Below are positions 2,840 through 21,257 of a stretch of DNA of 64,000 nucleotides, piece by piece. Each line of letters starts with the position of its first letter. Position 1 is the stretch's first letter. The translations under genes and the position numbers were made by a program. Source of the stretch: a virus; IMG/VR virus record IMGVR_UViG_3300048620_000017, positions 6,005 to 70,004 of that record; one strand, written 5' to 3'. The notes under the pieces are model-generated. The model had not been told where the DNA came from and did no database searches. It saw only the letters and a program-made list of their open reading frames with translations.

Positions 2840-3394
2840 TCAGGAATTTGCCGGCCAGGTCGTCACAGACGAAGGCGGCGACAGCACCCCGGCCGACGTT
2901 GTGATCGTTCCGGCCTTGATCGCGGTAATCACGTCCGACAGTGACGTGAACGTGCTCTGGATGAACTGGTTCACATCGTTGAAGATCGTGGTGATCTGCG
3001 TCGCCGTCAGGTTCTGCGTGGTGCCATCCGACTGCACCCAGGTAAATGTCGCGCCGGAATTGGCCTGAGCCATCGAATAGGCACCCAGAAGAAGCGTCAG
3101 GGACGCCGGATCAGTGGCGGCCTTCACATTGACCGGTGCCTGGCTTGTTCCGACGTTGACGGTAATGCCGCCGCTGGCGATCTGCTGCTGGATCTGGTTT
3201 GCACCAGCCATCAGTTCATTGGCCAGTGAAAAGCCAGGTGGTAGCGGTGGCGAAAATGCCGTGCCGTTGTACGTATCTCCAATGTTGGCTGCATTGGATG
3301 CAACGGCCAGGCTGTCAGCTACCCAATCGTCTGCCTCGATTGAAACTGAAACGACAGTGGTACGATCACTGCTCAGATGTGCAACGCGGATCAT
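2840..3394 (-). CDS. DUF4376-like tail fibre-associated protein
   Basis: C-terminal TFTWVQSDGTTQNLTATQI pattern; directly follows fibre 1. Confidence 0.7.
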   Translation of the reverse strand: MIRVAHLSSDRTTVVSVSIEADDWVADSLAVASNAANIGDTYNGTAFSPPLPPGFSLANELMAGANQIQQQIASGGITVNVGTSQAPVNVKAATDPASLTLLLGAYSMAQANSGATFTWVQSDGTTQNLTATQITTIFNDVNQFIQSTFTSLSDVITAIKAGTITTSAGVLSPPSSVTTWPANS

Positions 3395-3403
3395 TTTTTC
3401 ACC

Positions 3404-4879
3404 TCACGAGAATTCAAAGACGACAACGACACCGGCACCTCCTGCGCCTCCCTGGGCGTTAGGCGTGCCGCCGTCAGCGCCACCGCCACCGCCACCTAGA
3501 GAACCGGGACCGCCTGCGACGCCTGGGCCGCTCCCAACCTGATTTGCGCCGCCGAACCCGCCGCCGCCCCAGAAAGAAGATCCGCCACAGCCGCCATCCT
3601 CGCCTGAACCGGGGGAGCCGCCACATCCAGGCATCAACAGGGTTCCTGCGGTGCCGACGCCGACCGACTGGCCGCCCGCACCATTTGAGATGCCGCTACC
3701 GGAAGAATACCCGCCGCCGCCGCCGGTTGCGACGGCAAGAGAGCCGAATGAAGTCGTTCCCCCACTACCGCCGGGGAGGAGAGAGCCGAACGATGCGTTC
3801 GGTACGCCTCCGGCCCCGATGGTGACGACCTGCGACCCGACCGGGCCGAAGTAGAGTGCCGTTCCACCAGCACAGCCGCCGCCGCCGACGATGTTGCCCC
3901 CAGCGCCACCGCCACCAGTCGCAAAGGCGAGCATGTTATTTGCGCCAGACGTCGGAGTGTAGGTTCCACTCAGCGTGAAGACCCGCACATTGACGAGCGC
4001 TGCGCTATGGATCAGCGAGGCTACCTGCGAGAGCGGGACCTTGCGATCAACGCCGTCCGAACCGACATGTTGAGCGATGGTATCAGTGAGGGAAAGAGCG
4101 CCAGTCGGCGCCAACAGGCTTGAGATGTTGAGGGAAAGAACCTGCTGGGCCGTTGTAGCAAGGCCGGAGTTGGCTGCCACGGTGGCAACAGGATTGAGCA
4201 GCCGAAACGACGTTGTCGCTAGGTTATATTCGAGCATGCCAGTGCCGCTGGCCGGCCATTGATTGGGGGTCAGCGCGGTGCCATCCATGTTGACGATCGG
4301 ATGTGATCCCAGCGTCTGAATGTTGCCGGTCATGCTGCCGTTGTTTGGCGTTGCGACCTTCTGAATGATGTAGAGCTGGCCATCGGCATAGGCGCTCGGC
4401 GCAGGCAGGACATTCGCGGTCACGACGTTCGCCGAACCGGTATCGAGACCCACCATGATCGGGGAGGACGATGCCCCGATATTGGTCCAGTGGGCGCCAC
4501 CGGTATCCGGGTTGGATGTGTTGTTGTCGACGGTGCTGAGCCAGACGACGCCCGCAGTCGTGCCGGCCAGCAACGCGCCGAAGGGATAGCCGCCGATCGC
4601 TGTCGAGAACGCGGAATCGTATTGAACAAGTCCGCCAGCGTTCTGCCACTGCGACCATTCTGTGATCTGCCGCAGGATGCCGTTCATGTCCTGACCGAAT
4701 GGCGGCACGCCGCCCGATCCCACGGGCAGGAAGTTTAGCGGCGGAAAGCCATCGACCAGGGAAGCCGCGCCATTCACGATCCCGATCTGCGAGGCTGTCG
4801 GAACGTTGCGGATATAACTCGGGTTTGCCGAGGCTCCCCAGACAACGGGAAACTTCGTCGGCAGTGCTGAAATCTGCAT
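3404..4879 (-). CDS. Baseplate-anchored tail fibre protein 1 with Gly-rich C-terminus
   Basis: N-terminal AASLVDGFPPLNFLPVGSGGVPPFGQDMNGIL anchor typical of this myovirus group; GGGGAGG-rich C-terminal domain. Confidence 0.85.
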   Translation of the reverse strand: MQISALPTKFPVVWGASANPSYIRNVPTASQIGIVNGAASLVDGFPPLNFLPVGSGGVPPFGQDMNGILRQITEWSQWQNAGGLVQYDSAFSTAIGGYPFGALLAGTTAGVVWLSTVDNNTSNPDTGGAHWTNIGASSSPIMVGLDTGSANVVTANVLPAPSAYADGQLYIIQKVATPNNGSMTGNIQTLGSHPIVNMDGTALTPNQWPASGTGMLEYNLATTSFRLLNPVATVAANSGLATTAQQVLSLNISSLLAPTGALSLTDTIAQHVGSDGVDRKVPLSQVASLIHSAALVNVRVFTLSGTYTPTSGANNMLAFATGGGGAGGNIVGGGGCAGGTALYFGPVGSQVVTIGAGGVPNASFGSLLPGGSGGTTSFGSLAVATGGGGGYSSGSGISNGAGGQSVGVGTAGTLLMPGCGGSPGSGEDGGCGGSSFWGGGGFGGANQVGSGPGVAGGPGSLGGGGGGADGGTPNAQGGAGGAGVVVVFEFS

Positions 4880-19535: not shown

Positions 19536-19835
19536 CTAGCAGCGCCGCCTGATATCGATGAGCGAATGACCATCGGTCTGCAGCGAAAGCGCGTAGACGG
19601 GGCCCAGGACGCTCCTTGCGGTCGCTCTGTCGCGAATAACCTTCTCGCCCTCGCGATGCAGCGCGACATGGTCGACCGCGACTGCGAAATCGGGCAGCAT
19701 GTGGCTTGGCTGGAGGTCAGTCGATGAGGCGTAGACACCATCGAATCGATAGCTTGAGGCCGTCGATGGCATGATGAAGGCGAGCGCCAAGGCTACCAGG
19801 CCAAAGCCGACGAAGATGAATGATCGAAAGCGCAT
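19536..19835 (-). CDS. Small exported/membrane protein
   Basis: MRFRSFIFVGFGLVALALAF signal-like N-terminus; last gene of the RNA cassette. Confidence 0.6.
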   Translation of the reverse strand: MRFRSFIFVGFGLVALALAFIMPSTASSYRFDGVYASSTDLQPSHMLPDFAVAVDHVALHREGEKVIRDRATARSVLGPVYALSLQTDGHSLIDIRRRC

Positions 19836-19886: not shown

Positions 19887-20240
19887 TCAGGCGAGCGCCT
19901 CGTCGACGACGCGGTACGGGCAGCGCAACAGCGCCGCGATCGCGGTCCGCCCTTTGCCCATCGCCGCCAAGCGCCGGATCTCTGCAACCGAGCTGACATT
20001 CGTCGCAGGCGAAGGCGCTGCAACATCGTCAACTAGAACATCGGCCAGAGGCGCCGGCTCTGTCTCAGCGGCCCGCTCTCGGGCATACTGGCGAGTGCCG
20101 CGCCTGATGTTGTAGCGGGCCGCCAATTGGCTGGGATAGCTCTGTGAGACGTTGAAGTCATAGGCGATCTGCGCCACTGGCACGCCGGCCACGTATTGCT
20201 TCAGCAGCGCTTGCCGCTGTTCCTCAGTCATCCGCGGCAT
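19887..20240 (-). CDS. Double helix-turn-helix protein
   Basis: N-terminal GVPVAQIAYDFNVS and C-terminal GKGRTAIAALL HTH-like segments; RBS AAGGGAG; start at 20240. Confidence 0.75.
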   Translation of the reverse strand: MPRMTEEQRQALLKQYVAGVPVAQIAYDFNVSQSYPSQLAARYNIRRGTRQYARERAAETEPAPLADVLVDDVAAPSPATNVSSVAEIRRLAAMGKGRTAIAALLRCPYRVVDEALA

Positions 20241-20265
20241 GCAAACTCCCTTGTTAAGGTCACCA

Positions 20266-20362
20266 GGCCCGCGACAGGAATCGAACCTGCATGGGATCTC
20301 GCTGCAGCGAGAGAACCGGCGGGGGACTAGCCCGCTGCGTCTACCTATTCCGCCACGCGGAC
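20266..20362 (-). ncRNA. Class II (Leu-type) tRNA-like RNA with aberrant anticodon loop and no CCA
   Basis: GTCCGCG/CGCGGGC acceptor, GCG-GAATAGGTAGA-CGC D arm, GCGGG-CTAGTCC-CCCGC arm, long variable arm, GCAGG-TTCGATT-CCTGT T arm. Confidence 0.8.
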
Positions 20363-20374
20363 CTGGTGCCTTTC

Positions 20375-20443
20375 TGGAGCGGATGCCAGGTGTCAATCCT
20401 GGCTCAGCGCCTATGGAACAGGCACCTCTCACGGAGCATCCGC
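20375..20443 (-). tRNA. Non-canonical 69-nt tRNA-Gly(UCC) with reduced D arm
   Basis: GCGGATG/CATCCGC acceptor + U73 + CCA; GTGCCT-GTTCCAT-AGGCGC anticodon arm; CCAGG-ATTGACA-CCTGG T arm. Confidence 0.78.
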
Positions 20444-21180: not shown

Positions 21181-21257
21181 TGGTTGCGGGGGTCCGATTT
21201 GAACGGACGACCTCCAGGTTATGAGCCTGGCGAGCTACCGGGCTGCTCCACCCCACG
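21181..21257 (-). tRNA. tRNA-Met(CAT), initiator (fMet) type
   Basis: CGTGGGGTGGAGCAGCCCGGTAGCTCGCCAGGCTCATAACCTGG...TTCAAAT...CCCCGCAACCA; C1:A72 mismatch; encoded CCA. Confidence 0.95.

Follow-up and report, generated by a model that had tools for sequence, protein, structure and literature searches.

Few tRNA mimics are on record from bacteria and phages; tmRNA and YrlA are among them. In eukaryotes, a tRNA-like fold is found in mascRNA, where pairing between leader and trailer extends the acceptor stem, includes a bulged A, and is needed for maturation (PMC8457004). In E. coli, maturation by RNase P is blocked when the 5′ leader sits in a helix (PMC8925977), and a change of A73 to C73 has been reported to abolish leucylation of minimal substrates of E. 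coli tRNA-Leu (review PMC9976931). By current understanding, phages use tRNA genes to counter host defences that cut tRNAs, and the known cases are still working tRNAs.

Here we describe a tRNA-Leu-like element on the minus strand of a 64,000-nt stretch of DNA (the window), which is part of a 70.5-kb provirus record (a Mesorhizobium-type prophage). The tRNA body lies at 20362–20266, and a leader–trailer helix, referred to below as the clamp, reaches out to 20372/20256. The element looks like a tRNA-shaped RNA that has been kept, rather than a working tRNA or plain junk: the full tRNA-Leu shape is retained, a usable anticodon loop, A73, and CCA are lost, a helix that hides the ends is gained, and an unrelated phage has an element of the same design. 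The sole homolog found belongs to a 72-kb phage with direct terminal repeats (L002). The element was missed by a default-filter Rfam scan, and ARAGORN calls it “tRNA-???”. The Rfam tRNA model (RF00005, cut-off 29) nevertheless aligns with the body over its full length (1–71, 20362–20266) at 38.8 bits (E 3e-6); the L002 copy reaches 37.9 bits, so that both exceed the gathering score of canonical tRNA. In the window, the cloverleaf together with the clamp is the minimum-energy fold (−58.3 kcal/mol, z = −3.5). Its parts, in RNA order, are as follows.

20363–20372, minus strand: 5′ leader strand AAGGCACCAG (G-1 = 20363), paired with 20256–20266 in the minimum-energy fold
20356–20362, minus strand: 5′ strand of the acceptor stem, GUCCGCG (positions 1–7), with seven pairs including U2·G71 in the Rfam tRNA alignment
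20337–20355, minus strand: U8, G9, and a Leu-type D arm with a 3-bp stem and the loop GAAUAGGUAGA, which holds A14, A15, G18, and G19
20319–20336, minus strand: A26 and the anticodon arm GCGGG / CUAGUCC / CCCGC, loop at 20330–20324
20291–20318, minus strand: variable region of 28 nt ending in U48, with a 6-bp stem, a 4-nt loop, and two more pairs
20274–20290, minus strand: T arm GCAGG / UUCGAUU / CCUGU, canonical in the Rfam alignment
20266–20273, minus strand: 3′ strand of the acceptor stem, CGCGGGC, and the discriminator C73 (20266), followed by UGG and not by CCA
20256–20265, minus strand: 3′ trailer strand UGGUG-A-CCUU with a bulged A at 20260 (minimum-energy fold, duplex energy)

The initial annotation of this DNA described the D, T, and long variable arms as tRNA-Leu-like and intact, and these, like all other features it lists, are indeed present when the minus strand is read. 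The bases of the tertiary core are all present (U8, A14, A15–U48, G18G19, the T loop, and G53–C61), including the hinge elements A15–U48 and G18G19 and the D/T-loop pairs of tRNA-Leu. The 16-nt palindrome UCUCGCUGCAGCGAGA (20312–20297), to which attention had been drawn, is where it was said to be and is simply the 6-bp stem with the 4-nt loop of the variable arm (UCUCGC-UGCA-GCGAGA). Against this background, five deviations stand out: the CUAGUCC loop, C73, the absence of CCA, the 28-nt variable arm, and a leader–trailer helix of 10–11 bp on the acceptor stem. The loop C-U-A-G-U-C-C places AGU at positions 34–36 and C at position 37, just as had been read, and thus offers neither a Leu anticodon nor a purine at 37. 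The discriminator, also called C at the outset, is A73 in functional bacterial tRNA-Leu and C both in the window and in L002; the free 5′ leader and encoded 3′ CCA of a functional tRNA-Leu are replaced by paired ends and by UGG after C73. Open reading frames overlapping the element on either strand gave no family match and were rejected as coding, the family of the downstream HTH gene starting at ATG 20240.

The ancestry of the fold was traced by searching the 97-nt body against a sample of 401 alphaproteobacterial genomes. Positions 3–34 match 66 genomes at 90–100% identity, and 11 of the 12 best loci contain a gene for tRNA-Leu(CAA) or tRNA-Leu(UAA). The D arm GCG/GAAUAGGUAGA/CGC is the same as in the cellular tRNA-Leu(UAA) genes G082 and G205. 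The cellular relatives have the anticodon arm GCGGA / CUUAAAA / UCCGC, compared with GCGGG / CUAGUCC / CCCGC in the window, so that the pair closing the loop is changed on both sides (A-U to G-C). Relative to the nearest cellular arm, the loop is changed at five of its seven bases, against an identity of 96–100% over the 27 nt next to it. All ten cellular tRNA-Leu genes carry A73, followed in the eight aligned ones by CCA (seven) or CCG (one), and their variable arms measure 13–15 nt, about half the 28 nt seen here. The change is thus concentrated in a few sites (loop, closing pair, C73, CCA, and variable arm), and the core is untouched. Judged by sequence comparison, the Leu-like element is a genuine tRNA fold descended from tRNA-Leu.

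The leader AAGGCACCAG pairs with CUGGUG-A-CCUU, in which C73 is included as G-1:C73 and a single A is bulged. These 10–11 pairs stack on the 7-bp acceptor stem to give 17–18 stacked pairs. The prolongation of the acceptor helix by about 10 bp had been noticed earlier; it is borne out by the minimum-energy fold, and the leader/trailer duplex has an energy of −14.1 kcal/mol, a value matched by 4 of 20,000 shuffles. The same measure for ten cellular tRNA-Leu genes and for the phage’s own tRNA-fMet ranges from +2.0 to −4.6 kcal/mol. The clamp is not due to chance. According to the published enzymology, it would hide the RNase P site and the 3′ end, and since both ends would be hidden, the usual route to a free, CCA-ended tRNA would be blocked or would need a prior double-strand cut of the RNase III type. 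By the same kind of reasoning, C73 would prevent leucylation even of a released RNA. The proposal of a non-charging tRNA mimic fits the anatomy (C73, no CCA, clamp); the roles suggested along with it (decoy, processing signal, or cis-regulator) are candidates.

The element belongs to a cassette lying between structural genes. On the minus strand, the order is a cement/minor capsid protein, the major capsid protein, tRNA-fMet, about 730 nt of non-coding RNA modules, a mini tRNA-Gly, 12 nt, the Leu-like element, a 117-aa HTH protein, a 99-aa protein, a terminator-like hairpin, and head–tail genes. The neighbours are the following.

21181–21257, minus strand: initiator-type tRNA-Met(CAU) with encoded CCA, the first RNA of the cassette (ARAGORN; Rfam 56.1 bits)
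20375–20443, minus strand: D-arm-less tRNA-Gly-shaped RNA of 69 nt, ending in U73-CCA, present in six phages
19887–20240, minus strand: double-HTH gene of 117 aa with the Shine–Dalgarno sequence GGGAG at 20250–20246 (Pfam HTH_23 and Sigma70_r4_2, below cut-off)
19536–19835, minus strand: 99-aa ORF with a signal-peptide-like N terminus, 3′ of the HTH gene (no Pfam/PHROG match)

The terminator-like hairpin at about 19525–19490, after the 99-aa ORF, closes the cassette. The mini tRNA-Gly ends, with its CCA, 12 nt ahead of position +1 of the Leu-like element; this small RNA (loop GUUCCAC, U73-CCA) is conserved in the window and in L002, L003, L007, L015, and L031, with a compensatory change of G-C to A-U in the anticodon-like stem of L015. 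The sequence TTGACA (20395–20390) was rejected as a promoter, lying inside the T-loop-like hairpin of the mini tRNA-Gly and giving no sigma-70 match. The HTH protein has 16 homologs, mostly from Mesorhizobium, all starting at the same Met (ATG 20240); among the 401 alphaproteobacterial genomes sampled, it has no homolog and the capsid protein only three distant ones, and an HTH-profile scan of metagenomes found nothing. As the whole cassette is on the capsid strand, the Leu-like element is probably co-transcribed with its neighbours. Many relatives of the capsid gene are separated from the next structural gene by no more than about 150 nt, while others are followed by unrelated inserts of 1–3 kb, so that the site 3′ of the capsid gene is a hot spot for cargo; in eight relatives with other inserts at the same hot spot, no tRNA-like RNA was detected by Rfam.

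A pairing that concerns the HTH gene may be mentioned here. In the unprocessed transcript of the window, its Shine–Dalgarno sequence GGGAG (20246–20250) is able to base-pair with GCUCC (20376–20380), where the mini tRNA-Gly ends in U73-CC, and the clamp is then prolonged beyond an internal loop; L002 does not show this pairing. Processing is thereby predicted to be able to unmask HTH translation.

The L002 phage, with its radical-SAM neighbour and a capsid of another family (Gp13-like), shows the same order of mini tRNA-Gly, Leu-like element, and HTH gene (protein 58% identical). Its copy also has the clamp, C73, no CCA, and every stem. The simple pseudogene foreseen earlier, in which homologs would keep a normal Leu anticodon and CCA and the window copy alone would have decayed, is thus not what the homolog reveals, since its loop is non-canonical as well. 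The acceptor stem, T arm, C73, and trailer are 100% identical in the two copies, the leader is identical at 12 of 13 positions, and the D arm at 16 of 19, with the differences confined to the loop. The only difference in the clamp, A-10 to G in L002, turns A-U into G·U and keeps pairing on the RNA-sense strand only. Altogether, 57 of 58 bases of the top half and clamp are identical, and since neighbouring shared segments are roughly 93% identical (94% for the mini tRNA-Gly), this identity does not clearly exceed the local background. The cloverleaf with clamp lies less than 2 kcal/mol from the minimum-energy fold of L002.

The lower half differs more. The anticodon stems GCGGG/CCCGC (window) and ACGGG/CCCGU (L002) are related by one compensatory pair, G27-C43 versus A27-U43. 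In the Rfam alignment, the L002 loop UUUAGAACG has 9 nt, compared with 7 in CUAGUCC; alternatively, L002 has a 6-bp anticodon stem and the loop UUAGAAC, which ARAGORN reads as tRNA-Ser(AGA). The two loops look like separate changes in length of a YUUAG-type (Leu-UAG) loop, and the word “scrambled” used for the window loop in the initial annotation is fair. The L002 variable arm is a 20-nt hairpin with a UUCG loop, unrelated in sequence to the 28 nt of the window, and both fold. The recommended search for covariation thus yields one compensatory pair in the anticodon stem; with only two copies to compare, there is almost no covariation to count. A recent transfer could explain the conservation between the window and L002 without selection, and two copies do not allow selection and recent transfer to be cleanly separated.

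It is very unlikely that the element is an unusual working decoder, released by a double-strand cut, trimmed, provided with CCA, and reading rare codons with A34 (through AGU in the window and AGA in L002) or CUN codons through an off-size UAG loop. Such a role would agree with the intact tertiary core, with the regular U33 and A37 of the tRNA-Ser(AGA) call in L002, and with the rarity of the codons concerned: ACT makes up 8.6% of Thr codons in the window phage, TCT 4.9% of Ser codons in the L002 phage, and CTA 2.5–3.5% of Leu codons in both. Codon use does not track the anticodons, however, since ACT is used at 8.6% by the window phage versus 3.0% by the L002 phage, and TCT at 7.3% versus 4.9%. 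Moreover, Thr or Ser codons would be mistranslated by a tRNA with a Leu body, and the neighbouring phage tRNAs as well as nearly all cellular tRNA-Leu genes compared encode the CCA that the element lacks. Leu identity needs A73, Ser and Tyr use G73 and A73, and we know of no class II tRNA identity with C73, the very base that abolishes charging in the minimal E. coli tRNA-Leu discussed above. Taken together with C37 in the window copy, the 6-bp stem or 9-nt loop in L002, and a leader held in a helix, these points make a decoding role unlikely.

The borders of the element can be read by comparison with L003, a close relative of the window phage (93% capsid identity) that is devoid of it. L003 reads ...GCAUCCGCUCCAG-CCCU-CGGGCCGCGUCGCAGG..., where L002 reads ...GCAUCCGCUCCAG-[clamp-tRNA-clamp-AAACGUU]-CGGGCCGCGUCGCAGG...; in short, ...CUCCAG/CCCU/CGGGCCGCG stands against ...CUCCAG/clamped element/CGGGCCGCG. 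Presence and absence are thus exact at the clamp borders, and the element is a discrete module of a mobile RNA cassette. L003, L007, L015, and L031 carry the mini tRNA-Gly and L056 the HTH gene, in each case with the element missing, so that it is dispensable for both neighbours. As a separate observation, L003 (6013–6075) and L002 (2917–2985) carry a long imperfect hairpin, CGGGCCGCGUCGCAGGUGAU...AUCAUCUCUGGCG.GGC, after the mini tRNA-Gly or Leu-like position; it is absent from the window and may be another swappable RNA module or a terminator.

No further copies were obtained with exact and gapped DNA patterns in IMG/VR, in JGI metagenomes, or with blastn and tblastn in INPHARED phages and PLSDB plasmids, and GTDB representative genomes gave one chance match inside a Plastoroseomonas coding region and no real copy. 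This scarcity speaks for the possibility, unlikely in our estimate, that the element is a functionless hitch-hiker, that is, a chimeric or decayed tRNA-Leu gene whose inverted flanks arose through the insertion itself, either as terminal repeats or as a scar left by recombination. C73, the missing CCA, and the two changes in loop length (7 nt with UAG out of register; 9 nt) resemble a loss of decoding constraint, and presence or absence as a module in a patchwork region would suit a passenger. Such a relic is kept in play by there being only two copies and by a top-half identity not clearly above that of the roughly 93% identical neighbours. It fits less well that every stem is intact in both copies, including the compensatory pair of the anticodon stem, that the variable arms differ in sequence and yet both fold, that change is concentrated in the loop (five of seven bases relative to the nearest cellular arm), and that the A-U to G·U change in the clamp is strand-specific. 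Nor do the flanks behave as terminal repeats: there is no target-site duplication and no other copy of them, and the clamp pattern has 57 matches in IMG/VR, about the number expected by chance, none of which holds a tRNA.

We tentatively favour, at somewhat less than even odds, a non-decoding, non-leucylatable, locked tRNA-shaped domain that acts in cis on the cassette transcript. A domain derived from tRNA-Leu would have lost its tRNA function and survived, folded and locked, as one module of a mobile phage RNA cassette. As a stable tRNA-shaped knot or double-stranded stalk, it would keep the small RNAs on its 5′ side apart from the HTH mRNA that follows and would define or protect the ends of the flanking RNAs. 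The modelled anatomy, an embedded tRNA fold with 17–18 stacked pairs, fits a putative RNase P/RNase III processing element. Such a role would need the acceptor and T arms only and does not explain the kept anticodon arm and the enlarged variable arm. The distance to the HTH gene also speaks against action in cis: the start codon (20240) lies 15 nt past the clamp in the window and 95 nt past it in L002, and the element is dispensable for both neighbours. Its position just upstream of the HTH ribosome-binding site, noted earlier, accordingly holds in the window and not in L002, where the 95-nt spacer carries a hairpin, and the idea of a cis-regulator of the HTH gene is weakened by this spacer and by L056, which has the HTH gene without the element.

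The features that processing leaves unexplained would be accounted for by a decoy acting in trans, which we regard as doubtful: a locked class II shape, protected from exonucleases, would soak up a putative host factor directed at tRNAs, e.g., an anticodon-arm nuclease of a defence or toxin system. A decoy explains why the whole L-shape is kept (anticodon and variable arms, A15–U48, G18G19) while the features for decoding and charging are gone, and because the element cannot be charged or decoded, it would not corrupt translation. The copies diverge in the anticodon loop and the variable arm, which is what an arms race would be expected to produce. Examples of phage tRNAs acting against tRNA-cleaving defences have been documented (PMC10264068), and the cassette begins with an initiator tRNA, a known class of VapC target according to the same paper. 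On the other hand, the published cases are working tRNAs with insensitive loops, and a literature search gave no inert decoy. A decoy must also be abundant, and close relatives do well without the element. A bolder version, to which we give a rather low probability, would see in the element a purpose-built inert tRNA of rhizobial phages, whose clamped class II tRNA-Leu body, deprived of its anticodon, discriminator, and CCA, is made in bulk as bait for a host nuclease or toxin that recognises the tRNA-Leu shape. In this version, the fast-changing anticodon and variable arms would record the arms race, and the bait would travel with the D-arm-less tRNA-Gly and the initiator tRNA as a mobile anti-tRNase cassette.

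An extremely improbable reading would make the element a Y-RNA-like partner of host Ro60/Rsr, with the end-to-end helix as the protein-binding stem and the tRNA fold as the effector domain. Phages do carry Y-RNA-like RNAs with tRNA-like domains (PMC4201824), and a single other IMG/VR record, L140 (IMGVR_UViG_2898571807_000002), shares the 25 nt covering the T arm, acceptor strand, and C73, in an array that adjoins a YrlA match and a TROVE gene. The region 2556–4653 of L140 is a provirus-borne Ro60/Y-RNA locus, and the record has the following features.

38–616: integrase ORF
2556–2619: degenerate tRNA ending in CCA
2620–2775: tRNA-shaped RNA with an insertion of about 60 nt at the position of the anticodon arm; it has 25 nt in common with the window element (T arm, 3′ acceptor strand, C73)
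2874–2983: YrlA match (49.4 bits, E 1e-8, below the cut-off of 69)
3049–4653: TROVE protein of 534 aa

For the window element itself, no YrlA or Y_RNA match was obtained at E up to 10, and no TROVE gene was found in this phage or three related records (G000, G002, G003, G004), while control genomes matched. The GNCGAA motif (PMC4201824) is absent from the clamp. In the Rfam consensus of YrlA, the outer stem encloses a T-arm-like, a second closed, and a D-arm-like hairpin and hence joins opposite the closed “acceptor” hairpin, whereas the helix in the window extends the acceptor stem. Membership in YrlA (RF02553) was rejected, there being neither a match nor an adjoining rsr (TROVE) gene.

Three other classes were considered and rejected. 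Bacterial tRNA-Sec (8/5) has an 8-bp acceptor, a 5-bp T stem, a 6-bp D stem with a 4-nt loop, UCA, and G73; the window element has a 3-bp D stem with an 11-nt Leu-type loop, no UCA, and no G73, although G-1:C73 could give the 8/5 form. The tRNA-like domain of tmRNA is marked by a tag reading frame, G·U at 3–70, and CCA, and no tmRNA was called by ARAGORN or Rfam. A tRNA fragment of an att site is partial (usually 3′), lies at a prophage end beside an integrase, and forms a direct repeat; here, by contrast, a full-length cloverleaf stands between capsid and head–tail genes, and ARAGORN calls no tRNA gene in those parts of the provirus record that flank the window; an attP role was likewise rejected. 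A sequence that does look like an att-type fragment was noticed at 700–745 of L139 (IMGVR_UViG_3300049823_000237): it is the 3′ part of a class I tRNA, with no 5′ half detectable by ARAGORN, and its T arm and 3′ acceptor strand are the same as in the window element.

If functional, the element would add a new architecture to the bacterial and phage tRNA mimics and would offer a simple system for asking what a tRNA shape by itself can do, as a processing signal, stabiliser, or bait. Were the bait reading true, phage counter-defences would gain their first non-decoding tRNA decoy; as a hitch-hiking relic, the element would still show that pieces of tRNA move as discrete modules in phage RNA islands. 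The cassette with its D-arm-less tRNA-Gly and Leu-like element is a source of non-standard tRNAs.

Compared with known systems, the element is closest in sequence to alphaproteobacterial tRNA-Leu (CAA/UAA/UAG), with which it shares the class II cloverleaf, the D arm, a nearly identical anticodon stem, and a canonical T loop. It differs from bacterial tRNA-Leu in having C73 instead of A73, no CCA, CUAGUCC (with C37) instead of CUYAAAA, a variable arm twice as long, and a fully paired leader and trailer. With the phage tRNAs that escape host anticodon nucleases (PMC10264068), it shares a concentration of differences from host tRNAs in the anticodon loop; those tRNAs keep the anticodon, identity elements, and CCA, and decode, whereas the window element has lost all three. 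None of the hallmarks of YrlA, namely its place beside rsr, the match to RF02553, and a permuted topology in which the “acceptor” hairpin is closed, is seen here. Like mascRNA at the 3′ end of MALAT1, the element is a non-decoding tRNA-like fold within a longer transcript, with an extended acceptor stem and a single bulged A. That RNA serves transcript maturation (PMC8457004), while a processing role of the window element is a prediction from its anatomy. Furthermore, mascRNA is eukaryotic, is a substrate of nuclear RNase P, and takes a class I shape in which the anticodon arm is reduced; the window element comes from a bacterial phage, has a full class II shape, and bears its bulge on the trailer side. 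In the role proposed for it, the clamp would resemble the leader–trailer stalks of rRNA operons.
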